DNA of 14,002 bases, taken from a virus. Lineage: Duplodnaviria > Heunggongvirae > Uroviricota > Caudoviricetes. The position numbers and the translations under genes are program-made. Numbering within the stretch: position 1 is the stretch's first letter; each line of letters opens with the position of its first letter. The notes below the pieces were generated by a model that was given only the letters and a program-made list of their open reading frames with translations, ran no database searches and had not been told where the DNA came from. Shown in pieces: positions 2,438 through 13,331 of this stretch. Location: positions 1 to 14,002 of the IMG/VR virus record IMGVR_UViG_2695420617_000005. The stretch is one strand, 5' to 3'.

Positions 2438-3436
2438 ATGACCACTATTACCAAAGAACGTATTGAATTGTTCATTAAAAATCCGCTTGAAAACGGGCTT
2501 ACCCGTGGTGAACAAATGGAACTGGCACGGATTGCACTGGCATCACTGGAAGCAGAGCCTGTTCTGTATCAGTCCTGCACTCGTCCCACCTGGAATAGCG
2601 GTGTTCCGTGGACGGAATGGAAAGAACGAAGTCGTGAGTGCTACGAAGACGATTTGCGCTTTACAGACACGCCTGACCATGCCGGTTGGATATACAAATG
2701 TCGAAAACTATATACCACTCCGCCAGCGCCGATAGCGTTAGAGGCCATTGAAAACGCAATTGAATACATCCGCAGTATCGCTTTTCACATCGATGAAGAC
2801 GATTACCACGGCAAACATATTGCGTATTTCATGCAACAAGCATTGGCCTGGCTGGAAGGGCATTCATGCAGCGACGACAGACTGGGTAAAGCCGAGAATC
2901 AACCAGTACGCGGCAACCAGGCTGCCGAATCCAATCGCAGTAATGAGTGGACTGGCAATCCTGATATTGATAACGCCATCATCATGCTCGACCGCATAGA
3001 TACGCTGGAAAGTTGCGATGATGACCGTATTGAGGCGGTTAAGGCTGTTTTGCGTAGACTGGCTGGCAACTATCCGGATATTCCGGATAGTTCGGTGCCA
3101 GCGCCAGGAAAGGGCGTCACCGGTGAACGTATCCGCATTAAGCCGCATGTTTATCGCGAACTGGTTAACCGTCTCCACGATACAGCGATCAAGTGTGCTG
3201 GCACCCAGCAATTACGAGAAAGAATTAGCCGTGTTTTGGGCGACGTTATTACACCAGATCATCATAAACAAGCCGAGAAAAGTGGCCTGGAAAGGTGTCA
3301 CCTTGAGACGGCATTAAACATTAAGCCGGGGCATACGCTTGGCATTATTGATGCACTATTGGTTCATAAGATGGCCAGGGCTTTATTGCCGCTGGTGGCT
3401 GAAAAGCATGAGGCGGACCATGCCAACGAAAGCTGA
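2438..3436 (+). CDS. Hypothetical protein, 332 aa, acidic, no recognisable motif
   Basis: Strong RBS TAAGGAG at 2424-2430 with 7-nt spacing to ATG. Longest ORF in the left block. Confidence 0.65.
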   Translation: MTTITKERIELFIKNPLENGLTRGEQMELARIALASLEAEPVLYQSCTRPTWNSGVPWTEWKERSRECYEDDLRFTDTPDHAGWIYKCRKLYTTPPAPIALEAIENAIEYIRSIAFHIDEDDYHGKHIAYFMQQALAWLEGHSCSDDRLGKAENQPVRGNQAAESNRSNEWTGNPDIDNAIIMLDRIDTLESCDDDRIEAVKAVLRRLAGNYPDIPDSSVPAPGKGVTGERIRIKPHVYRELVNRLHDTAIKCAGTQQLRERISRVLGDVITPDHHKQAEKSGLERCHLETALNIKPGHTLGIIDALLVHKMARALLPLVAEKHEADHANES

Positions 3437-3704
3437 GTTACAGGCGCGCATAGAGATTCTTGAAAAAGAGAATGCGAGTCTAAAAGGAATGCTGGCACGG
3501 GCGGAAAGGGAATTATCAGGTAAATTATTGCCAGAAGAACTGCCACCAGCAGATATACCAGATCGAGTGTCCCAGTGGATGAAGTCTTTTGGTTTACCGT
3601 GGGAGGCTTTTTGGTGCTACGAGCATCGCAGATGGTGTGATGAACTTGATAGCAGTTTTCCCTACTTTGCGGAAGGGAACACTTGCCCTGAGTGTAGGAG
3701 GTAG
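3420..3704 (+). CDS. Hypothetical protein, 94 aa: N-terminal coiled-coil plus C-terminal zinc-finger-like motif
   Basis: ATG 3420 with GAGG 6 nt upstream, overlapping the 3' end of the previous gene. C-terminal CYEHRRWC...CPEC (C-x6-C-x17-C-x2-C). Confidence 0.5.
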   Translation: MPTKAELQARIEILEKENASLKGMLARAERELSGKLLPEELPPADIPDRVSQWMKSFGLPWEAFWCYEHRRWCDELDSSFPYFAEGNTCPECRR

Positions 3705-3708
3705 CGCG

Positions 3709-3969
3709 ATGTTTCGTCCTCGTCCAATACCGCCGAAAATAACTAATGGCTATCAGCCGAATACTCCAGAAATACAAGGGAGCGAGGGGCTTAAACCACC
3801 ACCAGCACCACGTATTCCGCCTGTAGCAAGGAGCGTATCATTACGACGAGAGTTAATATTAGCCTTGTCGCCCGTTCTGGCTGCCCGCCAGGATTGGGTA
3901 AGTAATGATGACCTGGCAGAAAAAATCACATCGCTGGTGGATAAAATTCTGCATAAAGCTGATCTCTGA
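3709..3969 (+). CDS. Hypothetical proline-rich protein, 86 aa
   Basis: AGGAGG at 3695-3700, 8 nt from ATG 3709. Pro-rich N-terminal half (RPRPIPPK...KPPPAPRIPP). Confidence 0.4.
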   Translation: MFRPRPIPPKITNGYQPNTPEIQGSEGLKPPPAPRIPPVARSVSLRRELILALSPVLAARQDWVSNDDLAEKITSLVDKILHKADL

Positions 3970-3979
3970 TCACCATGCT

Positions 3980-4013
3980 AAAATCCCCTCAATTCACAGA
4001 GGGGATTTTTGTC
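3980..4013 (+). terminator. Rho-independent terminator (11-bp stem, 8-nt loop, U-tract)
   Basis: aaaatcccctc (3980-3990) pairs with gaggggatttt (3999-4009), followed by TTTTTGT. Closes the upstream plus-strand gene string. Confidence 0.6.
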
Positions 4014-4014
4014 T

Positions 4015-4281
4015 ATGTTGTATAGAGTTTTATGGAAAAGCGTTATTGTCGGCGCGATACTGGCTATATCTGGGTGTGCAATGGTGCAATACAACGACGG
4101 TGAAAAGGTAAGCATACAGTCAGATGGTTGGTATGGCCTGGATAGCCTGCAAAAAACCGCAGATAAAGCCTGTCAGCAATATGGGAAGTCTAAAGCTGTA
4201 TATCAGCATAGCGCGAACGCTAATCCCCATCTCGCTCCTGGGTCGGGTGTTCAGAATACCATCTGGAAATGTGAGCTTTAA
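4015..4281 (+). CDS. Putative lipoprotein, 88 aa (signal peptide with lipobox ISGC)
   Basis: N-terminus MLYRVLWKSVIVGAILAISGC fits a signal peptidase II lipobox. Starts 2 nt after the terminator U-tract, with SD-like GAGGGG inside the terminator stem. Confidence 0.6.
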   Translation: MLYRVLWKSVIVGAILAISGCAMVQYNDGEKVSIQSDGWYGLDSLQKTADKACQQYGKSKAVYQHSANANPHLAPGSGVQNTIWKCEL

Positions 4282-4291
4282 ACGTGAGCAA

Positions 4292-4305
4292 CTGCAATAT
4301 TGCAG
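4292..4305. promoter_or_regulatory. Perfect 14-bp palindrome CTGCAATATTGCAG in the gap before the Toprim-like gene; candidate operator
   Basis: Exact dyad symmetry in the 48-bp intergenic gap. Not followed by a U-tract, so more likely a protein-binding site than a terminator. Confidence 0.35.
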
Positions 4306-4329
4306 CTAAAAGCCAGGAAGAACGGAATT

Positions 4330-4854
4330 ATGACAAAATTTGGAAAGCTGGAAGCTCATTTGCTAACTCGTAACTACCGCCATGATATACACCCATATAG
4401 ACAGTGGATCGATGAAAGTGAAGGAGTAGTTACATTCCCTCTATACAGGTTTGATGGGATGTTGGCTGGGTATCAGACATATAGACCAGGTGCTCCTAAG
4501 CAGCATAGCAATCCGAAGATGGCCCGGTATTTCACGCGATCACATGGCAGACAGTTACTTTGGGGAACCTATCTTCCTTTAAAAGATGGCCCAATATGGA
4601 TCACTGAGTCTATTTTTAAGAGCGCAGCTGTACACAACGCGGGCGGCAATTCGTGGGCGCTGTTAGGTTCGACTTTCTCCGCAGGATTACGCCGTCAACT
4701 TGCGATGCTGCCGTATGACTTTCGTGTAATAGGTGACAATGATGCGGCTGGTGAATTACTTGTGAAGTCTTTCGGAAAAGGTTTTGTGGCCCCGGATCTT
4801 GACGAGCTACAACCACATGAAGTGTCTCATTTGATTTTTAGCCATAGCCAATAA
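4330..4854 (+). CDS. Hypothetical protein with a Toprim-like motif pair, 174 aa
   Basis: AGGAAG 9 nt before ATG 4330. Conserved-Glu context WITESIF followed about 50 aa later by VIGDNDAAGE, the E ... DxD arrangement of DnaG-type Toprim domains. Called by eye, not by HMM. Confidence 0.55.
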   Translation: MTKFGKLEAHLLTRNYRHDIHPYRQWIDESEGVVTFPLYRFDGMLAGYQTYRPGAPKQHSNPKMARYFTRSHGRQLLWGTYLPLKDGPIWITESIFKSAAVHNAGGNSWALLGSTFSAGLRRQLAMLPYDFRVIGDNDAAGELLVKSFGKGFVAPDLDELQPHEVSHLIFSHSQ

Positions 4855-4870
4855 GCCTCCCTCCTCCATC

Positions 4871-4917
4871 AAGGCCACAATTTGTGACCTTAAACAATTT
4901 GTTTTCTGCTTTTTCTT
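4871..4917 (+). terminator. Possible weak terminator: imperfect 21-bp palindrome plus T-rich tract
   Basis: AAGGcCACAAtTTGTGaCCTT (4871-4891) then tttgttttctgctttttctt. Sits in the convergent intergenic region; could alternatively be a protein-binding dyad. Confidence 0.3.
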
Positions 4918-4980
4918 ATTTGAGGAAATAACGTTGTTGACAGCTAATAGGCTCGTTGTTGTTATACATGCCTGTATAGA

Positions 4981-5337
4981 TTATGACCGTAAATTATTAG
5001 CGGATTTTAAGCCATATTCACCGTTGTAGAAATTACTCATGTTCCATTCATTAGGAAGTTCTTTTCTGTCCAATGTATAGTGGCGCACGATATAACGATC
5101 TTCATCTTCTTCGATGGACAGGCGGACATAGCCAATGTGAATCACCGATACGGGCGGTGTTCGTATTGCATAGATGTCGCGGAGATATACCGGCAGCTCG
5201 ACAAATGCATCAGGTGCATCTGTGATGCTCGTTTTTTCACAGTATTCATATAACGCATCGTTGATATCGTTAAGAGATTCATGATCGTATATTTCCAGGT
5301 AATTACCGCGATCGCGATGGTACTCGATTTTAGCCAT
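4981..5337 (-). CDS. Hypothetical protein, 118 aa; distal gene of a two-gene minus-strand operon
   Basis: ATG directly abuts the upstream gene stop (TGAATG on the minus strand), with AGGGGA as RBS. Visibly AT-richer than its neighbours, with an acidic patch SIEEDEDRY. Confidence 0.6.
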   Translation of the reverse strand: MAKIEYHRDRGNYLEIYDHESLNDINDALYEYCEKTSITDAPDAFVELPVYLRDIYAIRTPPVSVIHIGYVRLSIEEDEDRYIVRHYTLDRKELPNEWNMSNFYNGEYGLKSANNLRS

Positions 5338-5922
5338 TCAAAATCCCCTGTTATCGTTTTGCATTTCTCTAATCCGGTTCAGAACTACTTCGTGCTGGAC
5401 TTGGATAGCGGCTTTTTCGTTTTCAAGCCGGGCAATAGACATCTCTAATTCTTTGCTGTACCAGGCGAGCTGGGCCAGGTTCATCCGGTTGTGGTCGAGA
5501 GTTGGAGACACTTCGACGCGATCCCTTTCTTCCTGCTTTAATGAGAAGAGATTCATCTCATCCCTTGAGGAAAATTCAGCAACAATTTCTTGTTGATGAT
5601 CCGGTCGCTGCGGCATCCTCGCCAGTATAAATGGCGGTTCTTTTGAAAACATGAATGTCGGTTCAGACCGTGTTTTTACCCAGCTTGCCTGCTGTCTTTC
5701 GGCAAGTTCACAGGCTTCATCATAGTTATCTGCCAAACAAAGCACGGATGGACGGTCCCACGCCCCACCATTCAGACAATAAACTACAATTTTCCCGTCA
5801 GGTTGTGTAACCCCATATGGATGGTCCCACCAGGCGTCCAGCTGAGCTTTAGAGCGTTTCTCGTTAGGAGTGCAGTCAAAATTTTTGGGCAATACAGGAT
5901 CGAGAGGAATGCGATTAGGCAT
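5338..5922 (-). CDS. Hypothetical protein, 194 aa; Cys-containing N-terminal domain and C-terminal predicted coiled-coil
   Basis: AAGGA RBS upstream of the minus-strand ATG at 5922. C-terminal heptad-like region LAQLAWYSKELEMSIARLENEKAAIQVQHEVVLNRIREMQ. Divergent from humD. Confidence 0.65.
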   Translation of the reverse strand: MPNRIPLDPVLPKNFDCTPNEKRSKAQLDAWWDHPYGVTQPDGKIVVYCLNGGAWDRPSVLCLADNYDEACELAERQQASWVKTRSEPTFMFSKEPPFILARMPQRPDHQQEIVAEFSSRDEMNLFSLKQEERDRVEVSPTLDHNRMNLAQLAWYSKELEMSIARLENEKAAIQVQHEVVLNRIREMQNDNRGF

Positions 5923-6096: not shown

Positions 6097-6486
6097 ATGG
6101 GTTTCCCTTCTCCTGCGGCGGATTATGTTGAAAGCCGAATTTCTCTTGATCAGCAGATAATTAGACATCCATCAGCAACCTACTTCATGCGGGCAGCTGA
6201 TAGCCATCACCGTGAGGGAATATTGCAGGGTGCTTTGCTGGTGGTTGATTCTTCGCTTACTCCAGTTGATGGTTCGCTGCTTGTGTGCGCTATGGAGGGT
6301 GAATATCGCATAAAGAGATACAGGAAGTATCCGCGCCAGCACCTGGAGGATTTAAGCACCGGGAAGAAAGAGGCGTTACCAGTAGATGACGATGGTTACA
6401 CGGGTAGTAATGCTGTTTTTGGTGTGATCACTCATGTCATCAATGATGCCCGGAGTGGGGAGTTTGATGATTGTCCGGTCATTTAA
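6097..6486 (+). CDS. humD: HumD, UmuD'-like translesion-synthesis accessory protein (129 aa)
   Basis: Begins MGFPSPAADYVE, i.e. at the position equivalent to the UmuD'-generating cleavage site (UmuD ...C/GFPSPAADYVE...). HPSATYF and Ser/Lys contexts conserved. GAGG RBS. Confidence 0.9.
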   Translation: MGFPSPAADYVESRISLDQQIIRHPSATYFMRAADSHHREGILQGALLVVDSSLTPVDGSLLVCAMEGEYRIKRYRKYPRQHLEDLSTGKKEALPVDDDGYTGSNAVFGVITHVINDARSGEFDDCPVI

Positions 6487-6558
6487 GCTGCAAAGTGCTG
6501 GTGCTTTATGCCTGTGAAGTTTATAATTGTGTACACATAACGAGTACACGAGGTGTTT

Positions 6559-6780
6559 ATGCAATCCATTAACTTCCGTACCGCGCGCGGCAACCTTTCT
6601 GAAGTGCTCAACAATGTTGAAGCCGGGGAAGAGGTTGAAATCACCCGCAGAGGCCGTGAGCCAGCAGTAATTGTCAGCAAGGCTACTTTCGAAGCCTACA
6701 AAAAAGCGGCGCTGGATGCTGAATTTGCATCCCTGTTTGACACCCTGGACTCCACCAACAAGGAACTGGTTAACCGATAA
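6559..6780 (+). CDS. phd: Phd antitoxin (73 aa)
   Basis: [49 protein letters not shown]... matches P1 Phd as recalled. TAATG overlap with doc. Confidence 0.95.
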
Positions 6781-7160
6781 TGAGGCATATATCACCGGAA
6801 GAACTTATTGCGCTTCATGATGCGAATATAAGCCGCTACGGCGGCCTGCCGGGAATGTCTGATCCGGGTAGGGCAGAGGCCATTATCGGGAGAGTTCAGG
6901 CCAGAGTTGCCTACGAAGAGATCACCGACCTTTTCGAAGTCTCCGCCACCTACCTGGTAGCTACAGCGAGAGGGCATATATTCAATGATGCCAATAAGCG
7001 TACCGCGCTAAACAGTGCGCTGCTATTTCTACGCCGTAACGGGGTGCAGGTATTTGATTCACCTGAACTGGCAGACCTTACCGTAGGCGGTGCGACTGGC
7101 GAGATATCTGTATCTTCTGTCGCCGACACGTTACGTAGATTGTATGGTTCTGCGGAGTAG
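6780..7160 (+). CDS. doc: Doc toxin, Fic-fold kinase (126 aa)
   Basis: [25 protein letters not shown]... with the Fic-type motif HIFNDANKR; matches P1 Doc as recalled. Confidence 0.95.
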
Positions 7161-7371: not shown

Positions 7372-8415
7372 GTGAAAGCCGTAATTACTCCCTTTGTACA
7401 AAAAGAGCTTGGCGTCGCCACATTCAAAGTGGATCAGGAAGTCAGAAAGCTGGTGGAGGCTGGCCGTAAATTTATTATGGAGCCGGTGCCGCGTGAGTTA
7501 ATCGAGCACATGGACGACGGCCTCGTTGTTTCCGAGCAAACTATGGCAACAAATGAGGCGTTGCAGCCGTTTTTTAACAGCGATGAACTGTTTCGCCGTA
7601 TTGGTGGAATTGACGCGCTGGTGGCGTGGTTGCGCAGGAAAGAGGGGCAATGCCAGGCCGCAGATCGTAGCTGGTGTGACAACCATATTGTCCACGCAGA
7701 ACGAGACAATAGCGCGGTGTTGTTGTGCTGGCATCACGATAACCATTACCGGATGCGTGGTTTTAATGAGTTGAAAGAAACGCTGCATAATAATCGCGTT
7801 AACTGGATACTGGATGTCGCCCGTCAGGAAATGGGGCTTTCAGATGGCCATGATTTAAGTATTCAGGAACTGTGCTGGTGGGCTTTCATGCGCAACATGA
7901 TGCACCTGATGCCGGAAGAAGTTTGCCGTATATCAATAAATAAGATGAAAGCCGCAACGCAGGATAGCGGACCTCTGAAAGAGGCGGATATTCGCCCGTA
8001 TGACGATCGCGCTACAGCATATGTTCAGATGATGGAAGAACGCGCCGCGCCGATGCGTGCAAAAGTATGCCCTGTGGATGTTGACTCCGACCCAAGTATG
8101 GCGCATTTCAAGATACCAAAACTTCAATCGCTAAAATTGCCCGAGTACATGGACTTTGTGGCTTCCCGTCCATGCTGTGGCTGTGGAGCTGCGGGAGCTG
8201 GCGCTCACATTACGCCTTATATCGTTCGTCATAGTCGATTATGCGCGCATGACATTTATGCTATTCCTCTGTGCCAGTCATGCCAGCGTGATATTGAGCG
8301 TGACCGCGATAATTGGGAGAAGACGCACGGTAGGCTGGCGATGCATCAACGATTGTTCTTTGATTACGCGCTTGGAGTCGGCGCTATCACAAGTCATTCG
8401 TCGAGTGTTAGATAA
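7372..8415 (+). CDS. pdcB: pdcB-position protein, 347 aa, Cys/His-rich C-terminal region
   Basis: GTG start with AAAGGTG RBS (start uncertain). C-terminal cluster RPCCGCG...H...RH...LCAHD...PLCQSCQRD and upstream CWHHDNHY. Name from recalled gene order only. Confidence 0.65.
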
Positions 8416-8503: not shown

Positions 8504-8956
8504 ATGTTACTTAACTGGCAGGGACGCCACTTCATGGAAATAAATCACTCACGAATAACATCGTACGAGATTGCGGATTACATGATCCGTACTAAATCTC
8601 TTCTATCAGCGAAAGAACTCGCAGCAATTCTTGAAAAGGAATACCCGCATCTGGATGTCGATAAGCGCGATGTTTATCTGCGCTTAAAGGCTATCGCTGT
8701 GTCTAAGTATTCGTCTGTTTTGATTGATGACAGTACACGCCCACGTAGATTTCAGATCCACTCTCTGAATCCTGAATTCTTTCGCCGCAGCCGCGCTCCG
8801 CGCCGGTTTGATGAAAAACTCCAGAACGAACTCTATATGACGCAGGACGAAAAGGAACGCCGGGAGCACCAGCCTTGGGTGATGGCGCGTCAACTTTTCA
8901 ATAAGGTGGTCCGTCAGCACCGTCATTACGGTAATGCCACATCCGCACGTATCTGA
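8504..8956 (+). CDS. lpa: Lpa, late promoter activator (150 aa)
   Basis: Position between pdcB and pacA with a C1-operator-controlled promoter, as expected for P1 lpa. Start could be ATG 8504 or the in-frame Met at 8534. Confidence 0.75.
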   Translation: MLLNWQGRHFMEINHSRITSYEIADYMIRTKSLLSAKELAAILEKEYPHLDVDKRDVYLRLKAIAVSKYSSVLIDDSTRPRRFQIHSLNPEFFRRSRAPRRFDEKLQNELYMTQDEKERREHQPWVMARQLFNKVVRQHRHYGNATSARI

Positions 8957-9042: not shown

Positions 9043-10236
9043 GTGACCTGGGACGATCACAAGAAGAATTTTGCTCGCCTGGCGCGAGATGGTGGTTACA
9101 CCATCGCACAATATGCCGCCGAGTTTAATCTCAACCCAAACACCGCACGTCGTTATCTCCGTGCATTCAAAGAAGACACCGGAACAGCGGACAGCCGTAA
9201 GCCAAATAAGCCTGTCAGAAAACCACTAAAAAGCATGATCATTGATCACGCTAATGATCAACGTGCAGGTGATCACGTTGTGGCTGAAATGGCTGAAAAA
9301 CAAAGAGTTAATGCTGTTGTCAGTGCCGCAGTCGAGAACGCGAAGCGCCAGAATAAGCGCATAAATGATCGTTCTGATGATCATGACGTGATCACCCGCG
9401 CCCACCGGACCTTACGTGATCGCCTGGAACGCGACACCCTGGATGATGATGGTGAACGCTTTGAATTCGAAGCTGGCGATTACCTGATAGATAACGTTGA
9501 AGCGCGGAAGGCCGCGCGCGCTATGTTGCGTCGGTCCGGGGCTGATGTTCTGGAAACCACTCTTCTGGAAAAGTCTCTCTCTCATCTCCTTATGCTGGAG
9601 AACGCCAGGGATACGTGTATTCGCCTGGTGCAGGAAATGCGCGATCAGCAAAAAGACGATGATGAAGGTACTCCGCCTGAATACCGTATCGCGAGCATGC
9701 TAAACAGCTGTTCCGCGCAGATAAGCAGCCTGATCAACACCATTTACAGCATCCGGAATAACTATCGAAAAGAAAGCCGGGAGGCGGAAAAGCACGCTTT
9801 GTCTATGGGGCAAGCTGGCATTGTTAAGCTGGCATACGAACGAAAGCGTGAAAATAACTGGTCAGTGCTGGAAGCAGCTGAATTCATCGAGGCGCATGGC
9901 GGGAAAGTGCCGCCCCTGATGCTGGAGCAAATCAAAGCCGATCTGCGTGCTCCTAAGACCAATACCGATGATGAGGAAAGGCAAACAGCCGTCGGTGGCC
10001 CTTCTCTTGAAGATCTGGACAAAGTTGCGCGAGAACGGGCCGCCAACCGCCGCGCGGATGCCGCATTGTGGATTGAGCAGCGTAGGGAAGAAATCGCCGA
10101 TATCGTTGATACAGGCGGTTATGGAGATGTTGATACTGAAGGTGTATCAAACGACCCATGGCTGGAACAAGACCTGGACGAAGACGAGGAGGAAGACGAA
10201 GAAGTTACCCGCAAGCTATACGGGGATGATGATTAA
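9043..10236 (+). CDS. pacA: PacA, terminase/pacase subunit (397 aa); contains the pac site
   Basis: GTG start with AAAGGAAG RBS. Begins [28 protein letters not shown]..., length 397 aa, acidic C-tail; pac hexamer array lies inside the gene. Confidence 0.9.
9236..9394. other. P1 pac packaging site: 4 + 3 TGATC(A/G) hexamers, each with a Dam GATC
   Basis: TGATCA at 9236, 9243, 9255, 9270; TGATCG at 9366; TGATCA at 9378, 9389. Matches the known pac architecture; cleavage region is the roughly 90-bp spacer between the clusters. Confidence 0.85.
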
Positions 10237-11720
10237 TGGCCAGAAGTTGCGTAACGGATCCACGTTGGCGCGAGCTGGTGGCGCTATATCGTTATGACTG
10301 GATTGCGGCCGCTGATGTTTTGTTCGGCAAAACACCTACCTGGCAGCAGGATCTGATTATTGAGTCTGTGCAGGAACAGGGTAGCAAGACATCTGTTTCG
10401 TCTGGTCACGGTACCGGGAAATCAGACATGACTTCTATCATGATCATGTTGTTCATAATCATGTATCCCGGTGCCCGCGCTATTATCGTTGCGAACAAAA
10501 TTCAGCAGGTAATGACCGGTATATTCAAGTACATCAAGATAAACTGGGCTACTGCCACCAGCCGTTTCCCATGGCTTGCTGATTATTTTGTTCTGACAGA
10601 AACCGCTTTCTATGAGGTTACTGGTAAAGGTGTATGGACTGTAGTACCGAAGGGCTTTCGTCTGGGAAGTGAAGAAGCTCTCGCCGGTGAACACGCAGAT
10701 CATCTTCTGTATATTATCGATGAAGCCTCCGGTGTCAGTGATAGAGCTTTCGGTATCATCACCGGTGCTCTTACCGGACAGGATAACCGCATCTTATTAC
10801 TGTCACAGCCTACACGCCCAAGCGGCTATTTCTACGATACACACCATAAACTGGCCAAGCGTCCTGGTAACCCTGATGGCGTTTATACGGCGATCACGCT
10901 TAACAGTGAGGAATCACCGCTGGTAACGCCAGCATTTATCAAAATGAAGCTGGCGGAGTACGGCGGGCGTGATAACCCTATGTACATGATTAAGGTACGC
11001 GGCCTATTCCCTAAATCACAGGATGGCTTCCTTCTTGGACGTGATGAGGTTGAACGTGCAACGCGGCGGAAAGTCAAGATTGCAAAAGGATGGGGCTGGC
11101 TTGCATGTGTGGACGTTGCTGGTGGTACGGGACGGGATAAGTCCGTTATCAATATCATGATGGTGTCCGGCCAGCGAAATAAACGCCGTGTAATCAACTA
11201 TCGAATGCTGGAATACACAGACGTTACAGAAACGCAGCTTGCCGCCAAAATTTTCGCAGAATGTAATCCTGAGCGATTCCCAAATATCACCATAGCGATA
11301 GACGGCGATGGCCTGGGTAAAGCAACGGCGGATCTGATGTACGAGTATTATGGTATTACCGTACAGCGTATACGCTGGGGTAAAAAGATGCATAGCCGTG
11401 AAGATAAGAGCCTGTACTTTGATAAACGTGCTTATGCCAACGTTCAAGCCGCAGAGGCCGTAAAATCTGGTCGTATGAGACTGGATAAGGGTAATGAAAC
11501 TATTGAGGAAGCGTCGAAAATCCCTGTAGGGATTAACTCCGCAGGTCAATGGAAGGTGATGAGTAAGGAGGATATGAAGAAAAAACTCAACCTGCACTCA
11601 CCAGACCATTGGGATACATATTGTTTCGCTATGCTGGCGGATTATGTTCCCCAGGATGAAGTGCTTAGCGTCGAAGACGAAGCGCAGGTTGATGAAGCTC
11701 TGGCATGGCTTAATGAATAA
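10236..11720 (+). CDS. pacB: PacB, terminase large/ATPase subunit (494 aa)
   Basis: TAATG overlap with pacA. Walker A-like P-loop [10 protein letters not shown] near the N-terminus; length 494 aa. Confidence 0.9.
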
Positions 11721-11744: not shown

Positions 11745-12596
11745 CTATTGCGCGCTTTCGGGGTTGTCGTTTACCGGCTGCCCCTTCTTAGTTTTACGGC
11801 TGCGCGTAACTGATGCGGCTGATTTGACCTTTTTCTCTTCGCGAGTGATGGCAATTTGTTTTTTTACATTTTCAATATCTGCCAGGCGATATATTTTTGC
11901 CTGCGGCCAGCGGTCGCAGATGATCGGTTCTATGGAGTCATAAAGGCTAAATTTTGCTTTCTCGAATTCACCGTTGATGATGATTCCATCACGGAGAGTT
12001 TCATCGCAGATAAACACACCACACAGCGGCACATGGTAACTAACTGATTTACCATCATTGTAGTTAGGGCTACTGGAAATGTAATGGACGCGTAGCATTG
12101 TTTCGCTAAAGCCGTGTACACGCATACGGAATTTTTCATCCTCCGGGTACTGCTTCATTAGCTCTTTTGTTGCTTCCAGGTTCTCTATGTATTTCGCACT
12201 GTGCTCATTGATCCCCGCGCTTTTCTGGATGCGAATGTCCTTATCAATCAGATGAATAATGCGGCCAGCGGTCATGTTGACGCTGTTCACAGCTTCTGTC
12301 TGATAAGTCGTAACCTTACGCACACCGCGAAGGATGTTAGGCACTGGATATAAAATAGTCTTTGGGATATTGAGGTCTGGGTACTGTTCCAGTTCCCGCG
12401 CCATTAAAGTCCATTTATCAATTTCAGCCTGAATGCTGTCCGTTTCTTTGAACGGCAGAACGACAACCGGGCGAACAGGACGACCGTCGCTGGCGGCATC
12501 AACGTGTTGGGCGCGTGCAACAGCTTTTTTTAGAAAGAGATCCCTGAAGCTGACGAACTCCTGGTACAGTTGTTCGCCGTAGACATAATTTATCAT
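11745..12596 (-). CDS. c1: C1 master repressor of lysogeny (283 aa)
   Basis: MINYVYGEQLYQEFVSFRDLFLKK..., 283 aa, GGAGGAGG RBS. Convergent with pacB, adjacent to coi and the operator cluster. Confidence 0.9.
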   Translation of the reverse strand: MINYVYGEQLYQEFVSFRDLFLKKAVARAQHVDAASDGRPVRPVVVLPFKETDSIQAEIDKWTLMARELEQYPDLNIPKTILYPVPNILRGVRKVTTYQTEAVNSVNMTAGRIIHLIDKDIRIQKSAGINEHSAKYIENLEATKELMKQYPEDEKFRMRVHGFSETMLRVHYISSSPNYNDGKSVSYHVPLCGVFICDETLRDGIIINGEFEKAKFSLYDSIEPIICDRWPQAKIYRLADIENVKKQIAITREEKKVKSAASVTRSRKTKKGQPVNDNPESAQ

Positions 12597-12690: not shown

Positions 12691-12707
12691 AGATTTATTA
12701 GTGCATT
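12691..12707 (-). promoter_or_regulatory. C1 operator-like site abutting the coi stop codon (candidate c1 autoregulatory operator)
   Basis: Minus-strand reading AATGCACTAATAAATCT, 14/17 to the recalled consensus. Confidence 0.45.
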
Positions 12708-12916
12708 TATTGTGAGTCTGGCTGGTTAGTGGCCATGAGATATTCGATTGTGTCAGTGAGATCATCCAGGTCGTCTTGGGTGATGCGGTACTCCTGATTG
12801 GATATCTTTGAGTAGTGTTCAGCAATGGCGCGGGCAGCGTCGGTTTCGGCGGGGTCTACAGATAAAGCGTTAGAGCAATGTCTAACGTCGTCGATGGTTG
12901 GTGGAATGAAAGCCAT
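12707..12916 (-). CDS. coi: Coi, C1 inactivator (69 aa)
   Basis: 69-aa ORF immediately upstream of c1 on the same strand, GAGG RBS; matches the P1 immC arrangement. Confidence 0.85.
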   Translation of the reverse strand: MAFIPPTIDDVRHCSNALSVDPAETDAARAIAEHYSKISNQEYRITQDDLDDLTDTIEYLMATNQPDSQ

Positions 12917-13154: not shown

Positions 13155-13171
13155 TAATTTATTAGAGCAAT
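13155..13171 (-). promoter_or_regulatory. C1 operator (immC Op99-type), minus-strand ATTGCTCTAATAAATTA
   Basis: 16/17 match to the recalled consensus, upstream of the imcB/imcA-coi-c1 transcription unit. Confidence 0.65.
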
Positions 13172-13237: not shown

Positions 13238-13254
13238 ATTGCTCTAATAATTCT
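13238..13254 (+). promoter_or_regulatory. C1 operator (immC Op99-type), plus-strand ATTGCTCTAATAATTCT
   Basis: 13 consecutive consensus positions; opposite orientation to the 13155 operator, about 67 bp away. Confidence 0.55.
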
Positions 13255-13297: not shown

Positions 13298-13331
13298 ATA
13301 ACTTCGTATAGCATACATTATACGAAGTAAA
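13298..13331. other. loxP site for Cre: 13-bp arm, 8-bp spacer GCATACAT, second arm with two outer-position differences
   Basis: ATAACTTCGTATA-GCATACAT-TATACGAAGTaAa versus canonical ...TATACGAAGTTAT. Spacer centre lies exactly 436 bp upstream of the cre ATG. Confidence 0.85.

Follow-up and report, generated by a model that had tools for sequence, protein, structure and literature searches.

A Rad-family gene, probably directed against retron RNA, in the hot slot of a P1/P7-like phage-plasmid

We consider it probable that the gene at 4330-4854 of the window (the whole 14,002-nt stretch analysed here, which belongs to a P1/P7-like phage-plasmid) is an intact and selected member of the Rad family, that it is carried as an accessory gene in the slot of hot, and that it most likely disables the msr-msd RNA of retrons. 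Rad, an anti-retron protein, provides a testable name for a gene that is labelled 'toprim domain-containing protein' in RefSeq and 'DNA primase' in PHROGs and many GenBank records, and in about 490 phage records the latter name is probably a misnomer. The family corresponds to the entire catalytic core of a DnaG-type primase and not to a bare Toprim domain, which bears on how retron RNA is recognized. P1-like phage-plasmids spread resistance genes in Enterobacteriaceae; in some of their lineages the anti-defence cassette has replaced hot, and others, P7 among them, carry it in inactivated form. The features of the gene and its left flank are collected in Table 1.

Table 1. Features of the Rad-family gene and its left flank (positions in the window)
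Feature	Position	Strand	Remarks
Remnant of P1 hot (5' end), 12 codons (N-C-N-I-A-A-K-S-Q-E-E-R)	4293..4328	+	92% identity to P1 (NC_005856) within hot, 93% to RCS47 hot
Ribosome-binding site AGGAAG	4317..4322	+	7 nt before the ATG at 4330; read directly from the sequence
Rad-family gene, 174 aa	4330..4854	+	DnaG-type primase catalytic core: N-terminal subdomain and Toprim
Motifs of the primase N-terminal subdomain, codons 33-70	4426..4539	+	FPLxxFxGxLxGYQxYRP hairpin, APKxxxNP, RYFT
Codon of E93, Toprim catalytic glutamate (ITESIF)	4606..4608	+	aligned to the glutamate of DnaG EGxxD
D136-N137-D138, Toprim DxD metal-binding motif	4735..4743	+	conservation; D138 corresponds to Rad D135
D156-L-D-E159, third acidic cluster	4795..4806	+	E159 corresponds to Rad E156

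The start at 4330 matches the RefSeq gene call, and exactly these 525 bases are annotated by RefSeq in identical plasmids. Plasmid NZ_CP038506.1 agrees with the window without a difference in the two segments compared, 3420-3704 and 4330-4854. No promoter near the gene was found by a sigma-70 consensus scan of 3300-5400, nor did the patterns of the P1 late-promoter -22 box or of the C1 operator match anywhere in its vicinity. The 14-bp palindrome CTGCAATATTGCAG upstream of the gene was weighed as a candidate operator or LexA box and rejected, as its spacing does not suit LexA and its position falls inside the hot remnant.

The Rad-family gene is an accessory gene in the slot where P1 has hot, namely the last + strand gene ahead of a LexA-controlled divergent pair, upstream of humD. 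The 36-bp remnant of hot adjoins it and is the left junction at which the Rad cassette took the place of hot, and the P1 late promoter LPhot was not kept in the window. P1 itself is devoid of the Rad-family gene, the P7 copy is cut short and split by IS903, and, like P7, about 85 E. coli plasmids have nothing more than partial copies. Among 5,426 complete E. coli genomes, 60 harbour the full-length gene, plasmid-borne in every case, which is consistent with a 2025 preprint that reports Rad in P1/D6 phage-plasmids as 'largely restricted to two clades'. The occurrence of Rad in such elements is thus already known and does not constitute a new kind of system. P1 Hot, a homologue of the theta subunit of DNA polymerase III, and the Rad-family protein that holds the same slot both go back to replication-protein folds of the host, as phage copies or derivatives, although they are unrelated to each other in sequence and fold.

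The assignment to Rad comes through phage T5. The best family match of the 174-aa protein was PHROG 849 (E=3.5e-53), the T5 protein T5p074 fits the same positions of this profile (E=2.6e-61), and the two proteins share 43% identity over 167 aa (BLASTP, E=3e-33). Within the 8-kb region of T5 that is missing from the viable st0 mutant, no gene other than T5p074 is of Toprim or 'primase-like' type, and a paper on phage BF23 states that the TOPRIM 'primase' ORF of T5 had been established as Rad. Rad, for 'retron anti-defense', is reported to disarm bacterial retrons (Azam et al. 2023, bioRxiv 10.1101/2023.03.15.532788), and mutants at R13, P33, I88, D135 and E156, including D135H and E156H, are reported to have weakened activity (bioRxiv 10.1101/2023.03.15.532788). 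The 172-aa T5p074 carries these five residues at exactly the positions given in the preprint. All five residues are identical in the window protein, where they are R14, P37, I91, D138 and E159. The two proteins further share their length class, a single-domain build, the 'ESxFK' after the catalytic Glu, a location in a variable accessory region, and their identity extends across the whole length. They differ in setting: T5 Rad belongs to a virulent T5-like phage and has tRNA neighbours, whereas the window copy resides in a temperate P1-like phage-plasmid, in the hot slot, with no tRNA neighbours.

In the published work, Rad lowers retron ncRNA and msDNA and not the transcripts of RT or effector, RNA degradation being deduced from the reduced levels of ncRNA and msDNA in cells, and a Rad homologue of the Proteus phage Privateer counters retron Ec78; the data cover homologues from T5-family, Proteus, Shigella and Salmonella phages (bioRxiv 10.1101/2023.03.15.532788). 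The Privateer 'DNA primase' was among the closest viral structure models to the window protein (TM 0.77/0.81). All functional support for Rad comes from this one 2023 preprint, whose peer-reviewed version never mentions Rad, and no later paper on the mechanism of Rad was found in the literature searched.

The family is large and uniform in its build. A total of 1,662 cluster representatives were retrieved at E below 1e-3, and the best 150 of those listed are mostly 165-190 aa long, most of them matching the window protein end to end; a homologue is present in 490 of 50,697 phage records. With 174 aa, a standalone single domain and a primase/Toprim fold, the window protein agrees with the Rad type of about 165-190 aa. 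Comparison with the copy of PhiR41_1 revealed 30 nucleotide differences and only 3 amino-acid differences, and the resulting dN/dS of 0.027 indicates strong purifying selection as judged from the sequences. The neighbourhoods of distant homologues consist of arrays of small early genes without assigned role in accessory regions, and little else. Scans of the 174-aa protein against Pfam, NCBIfam and PADLOC gave zero matches and a single-sequence search of PDB sequences returned nothing meaningful, the PHROG scan and the family profile being the only informative searches.

The original prediction, which pointed to a conserved Glu followed by DxD as in Toprim catalytic cores and proposed a structural comparison with DnaG, was borne out. 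ITESIF holds E93 and VIGDNDAAGE holds D136, D138 and G141, and among 139 diverse family members with a median identity of 32% to the window protein, conservation reached 100% for E93, 90% for D136, 91% for D138, 95% for G141 and 94% for D156; far from lacking conservation, these residues are accompanied by G47, Y51 and Y67 (each at least 98%), R14 (97%) and an E or D at position 159 (87%), while P37 and I91 vary more than R14, D138 and position 159. The predicted model is one compact domain (pLDDT 91.2), and the family profile aligns with DnaG entries of the PDB, the Toprim fold included. Codons 33-70 align with the DnaG motifs RxxFPIxDxxGxxxGFGGR and PKYLNSP (profile-to-PDB matches 4e2k, 1dd9 and 1eqn), so that the N-terminal subdomain of the RNA-polymerase domain adjoins a Toprim with Glu and DxD as in DnaG-type primases. 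The chain ends 15 residues past the third acidic cluster, the catalytic core covers it whole, and it has zero Cys residues; no helicase-interaction domain or fused helicase is present in the 174-aa protein, and no zinc-binding domain was found for it, either fused or as a dedicated partner. The protein is a DnaG/T7-type primase catalytic core cut down to a single 174-aa domain, which retains the hairpin for nucleic-acid or NTP binding, the Lys/Arg motifs and the Toprim metal centre.

Two small upstream ORFs had been described as zinc-finger-like and, together with the Toprim protein, as a possible split primase. The ORFs are indeed real and conserved, with conserved Cys/His. In the ORF at 3420-3704, C66 and H69 are invariant and C89 and C92 nearly so, which gives C-x2-H-x19-C-x2-C, whereas C73, suggested by the raw sequence, is unconserved; in the ORF at 1258-1512, C6, C69 and C72 are invariant and C16 is nearly invariant. 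From these patterns both products may bind zinc. The split primase, on the other hand, is not supported, since elsewhere the Cys-rich ORFs do not accompany the Toprim family: they occur in 17 and 19 phage records as against full-length Toprim homologues in about 480 others, and were absent from the flanks of Toprim homologues (~2-8 kb per side) in seven other phages or contigs. RCS47 directly shows the ORF at 3420-3704 without the Toprim gene, and PhiR41_1 carries the Toprim gene but neither Cys-rich ORF. The ORF at 3420-3704 had no match to Pfam zf-CHC2 and its model did not resemble the zinc domain of a primase in structure, and a sequence scan of the ORF at 1258-1512 likewise gave no zf-CHC2 match. 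The Cys-rich ORFs are unrelated neighbours of the Rad-family gene.

We propose that upon phage infection or induction the Rad-family protein would act through its Toprim metal centre, which would cut or otherwise destabilize the retron msr-msd non-coding RNA; loss of this msDNA precursor would leave the retron abortive-infection systems of the host unable to assemble or fire. The 43%-identical P1-type copy would, by analogy, act like T5 Rad, and the chemistry of Rad is presumably direct RNA cleavage. The other half of the original prediction, a standalone nuclease, fits the lowering of ncRNA and msDNA published for the family and stands as a prediction for the window copy. The primase-specific motifs kept beyond the Toprim centre are unneeded by a simple nuclease and hint at a primase-like binding of substrate. 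Rad-family proteins as primase cores that still bind single-stranded template and NTPs, with a primase-like action on msr-msd RNA, msDNA or tRNA-like substrates, appear decidedly unlikely to us; such proteins could carry out template-directed synthesis of oligonucleotides, or capping, and so block reverse transcription, or they could cut under guidance of the primase template-binding groove. On this reading Rad might, in a temperate phage-plasmid, also act in lysogeny and bring about a lasting silencing of host retrons. What the data show is that the whole primase core, with its motifs outside the Toprim part, is maintained by strong selection.

It is unlikely that the Toprim protein, as a nuclease or by binding nucleic acid, acts mainly on something other than retron ncRNA, such as structured or tRNA-like RNA, another defence component or the DNA of a competing phage. 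Several contexts point that way: the T5 gene lies within a tRNA cluster directly upstream of tRNA-Ser and tRNA-Ile, in Vibrio phages the homologue overlaps the last part of a gene for tRNA nucleotidyltransferase, the metagenomic protein P0131 joins a CCA-adding-enzyme-like region (PolyA_pol head, RNA-binding and HD) to the Rad domain, the Toprim nucleases AriB and RNase M5 act on tRNA or rRNA, and the support for Rad is that of a preprint. However, in the sole experiments carried out with family members the anti-retron activity was broad and ncRNA and msDNA were lost, the co-location with tRNA genes may just mean an anti-defence island, and the further fusion partners (Mom, GNAT plus Arr, HAD and cytidylyltransferase) share no theme. 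It is extremely improbable that the gene is a decaying, functionless remnant of a primase. The 435 positions of PHROG 849, of which the protein covers just 145-333, the existence of the fragment families PHROG 14043 and 17952 and the partial copies in P7 and the E. coli plasmids would suit decay, but the selection and length data, that is, the low dN/dS and the end-to-end matches to relatives of the same size, already contradict it, as do the conserved catalytic residues and the confident, compact model.

A working mini-primase, in which the 174-aa core would supply RNA primers to the replication of the phage-plasmid, alone or with a zinc-finger protein in trans, is very unlikely, in spite of the complete DnaG/T7-type RNA-polymerase-domain fold and the conservation of its FPxxxxxGxxxGY hairpin, APK...NP, E, DxD and third acidic cluster. 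Some jumbo phages do split a zinc-ribbon from DnaG-Toprim (PMC7824862), and in Kagunavirus the homologue follows a helicase gene with a stop/start overlap in a DNA polymerase operon; Kagunavirus, however, has a separate 746-aa helicase-primase. The absence of zinc-binding and helicase-binding domains and of Cys-rich companions elsewhere also speaks against primer synthesis, and the gene is dispensable: T5 st0, T5 8-kb deletion mutants and BF23 are viable without it, P1 has none and the P7 copy is wrecked by IS903. Its contexts are mostly accessory or early gene arrays and not replication modules.

Other Toprim proteins resemble the Rad-family protein less. RNase M5, the B. stearothermophilus structures 2i5r/2fcj, P2 OLD, GajA and AriB match just its Toprim half of roughly 90 residues. 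An identity as RNase M5 or a small Toprim protein was rejected, as the protein is not a Toprim alone (about 110-120 aa), to which RNase M5 adds an RNA-binding domain at the C terminus. OLD, GajA and AriB require an ABC ATPase domain or partner, none of which is present in the window protein or adjacent ORFs, so that OLD-family, PARIS AriB and Gabija GajA identities were rejected as well; PADLOC on the window protein gave nothing at E up to 0.1. Compared with E. coli, Aquifex, B. subtilis and S. aureus DnaG, T7 gp4, the N-terminal domain of Twinkle and T4 gp61, the protein has the same core order, consisting of an FPI...G..G hairpin, a PKY-like Lys, E, DxD and the third acidic cluster, but at only 13-18% identity, and unlike them it is without a zinc-binding domain, a C-terminal helical subdomain and a helicase-binding or helicase domain. 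The Rad family also differs from these primases in being dispensable in its carrier phages and in its reported effect, which is loss of RNA and not primer synthesis. Among the fusions of the Rad domain examined no helicase or zinc-finger partner occurs; some may be gene-calling read-throughs, and they give a weak hint of a link to RNA.

The 174-aa ORF is real: a good ribosome-binding site precedes it, and a RefSeq gene call, 'toprim domain-containing protein', covers exactly these 525 bases. Its best-supported reading is that of a putative anti-retron protein of the Rad (retron anti-defense) family. The protein gave no matches in Pfam, NCBIfam or PADLOC and was assigned among the PHROGs to phrog_849, 'DNA primase' (E=3.5e-53). 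Homologues were found by tblastn in 490 of 50,697 phage records, including T5-like phages (annotated 'DNA primase' or 'DNA primase-like protein'), Kagunavirus and related siphoviruses, jumbo Erwinia phages, and Proteus and Vibrio phages. The T5 homologue T5p074 (43% identity, E=3e-33) is part of the tRNA gene cluster and of the 8-kb segment that the viable st0 mutant has lost. Rad was described in a preprint (Azam et al. 2023, bioRxiv 10.1101/2023.03.15.532788) as a small protein, annotated as primase/helicase and TOPRIM/RNase, that neutralises the retrons Ec67, Ec78, Ec83, Ec48 and Se72; homologues from Proteus phage Privateer and from Shigella and Salmonella phages were active as well. Rad lowered retron ncRNA and msDNA, not the RT and effector transcripts, and was weakened by the mutations R13E, P33T, I88T, D135H and E156H. 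These five residues stand at exactly those positions in the 172-aa T5p074 and are identical to the aligned R14, P37, I91, D138 and E159 of the window protein, and the stated Rad length of 189 aa is that of T5p074 extended to an upstream ATG. The functional evidence comes from this single preprint; the peer-reviewed paper from the same work omits Rad altogether, and our literature search found no later mechanistic study of Rad. A 2025 phage-plasmid preprint places 'Rad (anti-Retron)' in the P1/D6 group, 'largely restricted to two clades'. In agreement with this, 60 out of 5,426 complete E. coli genomes had the full-length gene, each time on a plasmid, and about 85 more had partial copies. Both the family to which the window gene belongs and its occurrence in the P1/D6 phage group had been described before.

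A word-indexed homologue search recovered 20 relatives with identity down to 35%, nearly all of 159-185 aa and one with Pfam Toprim_2. An exhaustive profile search matched 1,662 cluster representatives at E < 1e-3 (172 at E < 1e-30), and most of the best 150 were 165-190 aa long and matched end to end, so the short length is the normal state of the family and not a truncation. The protein contains the motifs ITESIF (E93) and VIGDNDAAGE (D136, D138, G141), in which the original prediction had recognised a Toprim-like Glu and DxD. Among 139 diverse members, whose median identity to the window protein is 32%, E93 was conserved in 100%, D136 in 90% and D138 in 91%, so the non-conservation that would weigh against a Toprim assignment was not seen; Y67 and G79 were conserved in 100%, R14 in 97%, G141 in 95% and D156 in 94%. 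The window gene and its PhiR41_1 copy differ at 30 nucleotides and only 3 amino acids (dN/dS 0.027). Both DxD aspartates are replaced by Q/E and G in about 9% of the 139 proteins, with the catalytic Glu retained, and the Glu +4 position is Asp in 63% (as in DnaG EGxxD) and Lys in 28%, the latter in both the window protein and T5 Rad; these variants may represent functional subtypes or inactive forms.

Structure comparison (two figures per reference) matched the protein to the Twinkle primase-like domain (13.0, 159), Aquifex DnaG and the B. subtilis DnaG RNA-polymerase domain (12.9, 163 each), a T7 primase fragment (12.8, 148), the E. coli DnaG core (12.2, 164), and RNase M5 and 2i5r, which are Toprim only (9.4, about 90). 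Among PDB sequences, the catalytic cores of DnaG were also hit by the family profile (E about 7e-4), over a stretch that starts at the FPI...G..G hairpin, takes in the PKYLNSP-like residues and reaches the Glu and DxD. By these matches, the protein is a complete DnaG/T7-type RNA-polymerase domain core, more than a Toprim domain. In a Foldseek search of viral models, a Proteus phage Privateer protein ranked second (TM 0.77/0.81).

A replication primase, the function implied by the 'DNA primase' label of PHROG 849 and the many GenBank phage records that follow it, is disfavoured, as phages that have lost the gene stay viable, the helicase-primase of Kagunavirus is a separate protein, and the gene is missing from P1 and disrupted in P7. 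The protein contains no cysteine and is without a zinc-binding domain or any helicase-binding region. Many of the 'DNA primase' labels on the family are probably wrong, which, together with the complete DnaG-type core of Rad, is a modest addition to what was described. PHROGs 14043 (92 positions) and 17952 (68 positions) appear to be made up of N- and C-terminal pieces of this protein.

The original prediction also considered a split primase completed by two separate zinc-finger-like proteins. Both are indeed conserved small ORFs with conserved Cys. In the PHROG 3797 ORF (function unknown), an N-terminal coiled coil is followed by the C-terminal motif C66-x2-H69-x19-C89-x2-C92, conserved including its His, with C73 not conserved; the PHROG 4030 ORF (P7 Upf87.4) conserves C6, C16, C69 and C72. 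They were found in 17 and 19 phage records, respectively, mostly of P1-like and lambdoid or P22-like phages, and these carriers do not overlap with Rad-bearing phages, except for P1-backbone relatives with Rad remnants only. The regions retrieved around Rad homologues, roughly 2-8 kb to either side, contained neither ORF in PhiR41_1, T5, Kagunavirus, a Vibrio phage or three metagenomic contigs. The fetched RCS47 locus has the PHROG 3797 ORF without Rad, and D6 apparently likewise, as judged by DNA-level (megablast) coverage only. With the Cys-rich ORFs absent from these flanking regions and the carrier sets otherwise separate, the split primase is not borne out; the Toprim assignment holds, as does a nuclease as a possible reading.

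Several NCBI records name the 94-aa PHROG 3797 protein 'antitoxin PHD', which looks like an annotation error since it had neither a Pfam nor a fold match; its homologues P0194 and P0206 are frameshift variants reading into an overlapping frame. In RefSeq NC_050152, P7 upf86.8, under or next to the tblastn match of the PHROG 4030 ORF, is labelled 'DNA primase'. Should the adjoining window ORF be its counterpart, the label is probably spurious; the only matches of this ORF are to PHROGs of unknown function and to coiled-coil families.

For an anti-retron protein, a Toprim metal centre in a primase-derived nucleic-acid-binding scaffold would bring about removal of the retron ncRNA. The T5 gene (locus L009, 4092-4719) lies immediately upstream of tRNA-Ser and tRNA-Ile, the homologue in Vibrio phages overlaps the 3' end of a tRNA nucleotidyltransferase gene (Vibrio phage F89 g2, L010 3631-5465), and a 582-aa metagenomic protein (P0131) carries PolyA_pol head, RNA-binding and HD domains, CCA-adding-enzyme-like, followed by a Rad domain. 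This recurring link to RNA metabolism may reflect only anti-defence islands.

In P1, hot is the final + strand gene ahead of the LexA-controlled divergent pair; in the window the Rad gene holds this position, and in PhiR41_1 it lies directly before humD. A 36-bp remnant of the hot 5' end (92% identity to P1), reading NCNIAAKSQEER, adjoins the Rad gene in the window; the Rad cassette thus replaced hot by recombination inside hot. The P1 late promoter LPhot is not kept in the window, and a promoter search for the Rad gene found none. In P7 the gene is wrecked (L002 3860-5134): only window 4642-4854 remains, the first 104 or so codons are absent, and IS903 splits the remnant at about codon 131, with a 9-bp duplication (window 4718-4726) on both sides. 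Similar partial copies occur in the about 85 E. coli genomes. Directly upstream of the Rad gene, 3' of a strong terminator-like hairpin, lies a small predicted lipoprotein gene (PHROG 7757, function unknown) whose signal peptide ends in a lipobox (LAISGC). Superinfection exclusion is a frequent role of small phage lipoproteins.

Features of the window and their positions
Feature	Position	Strand
ORF, possible P7 upf86.8 counterpart	563-1297	+
PHROG 4030 ORF	1258-1512	
PHROG 3797 ORF	3420-3704	+
Terminator-like hairpin	3980-4009	
Predicted lipoprotein gene	4015-4281	+
hot remnant	4293-4328	
Ribosome-binding site AGGAAG	4317-4322	+
Rad gene	4330-4854	+
humD	6097-6486	
phd	6553-6780	
doc	6780-7160	
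pdcB-like HNH gene	7372-8415	
lpa	8504-8956	
pacA	9043-10236	
pacB	10236-11720	
c1	11745-12596	minus
coi	12707-12916	minus
C1-operator-like sequences	13155-13171, 13238-13254	
loxP-like site	13298-13331	

The window comes from a P1/P7-like phage-plasmid (Punavirus), with the P1 gene order kept across Ead/Ea22-like and PmgU-like ORFs, humD to coi and the lox site. The E. coli plasmid NZ_CP038506.1 is 100% identical to the PHROG 3797 ORF and, separately, to the Rad gene. The loxP-like site (ATAACTTCGTATA-GCATACAT-TATACGAAGTAAA) is flanked by C1-operator-like sequences and the expected cre position, and matches canonical P1 loxP apart from two bases at the right arm's outer end. Positions 1-135 are non-phage DNA: low-complexity T/C-rich sequence leads into a Nextera read-1 adapter (tcgtcgtcagcgtcAGATGTGTATAAGAGACAG) that is near-exact overall and exact in its mosaic end (117-135). 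They represent an artefact of the library or assembly at a contig end and give rise to the spurious ORFs 28-279 and 32-157.
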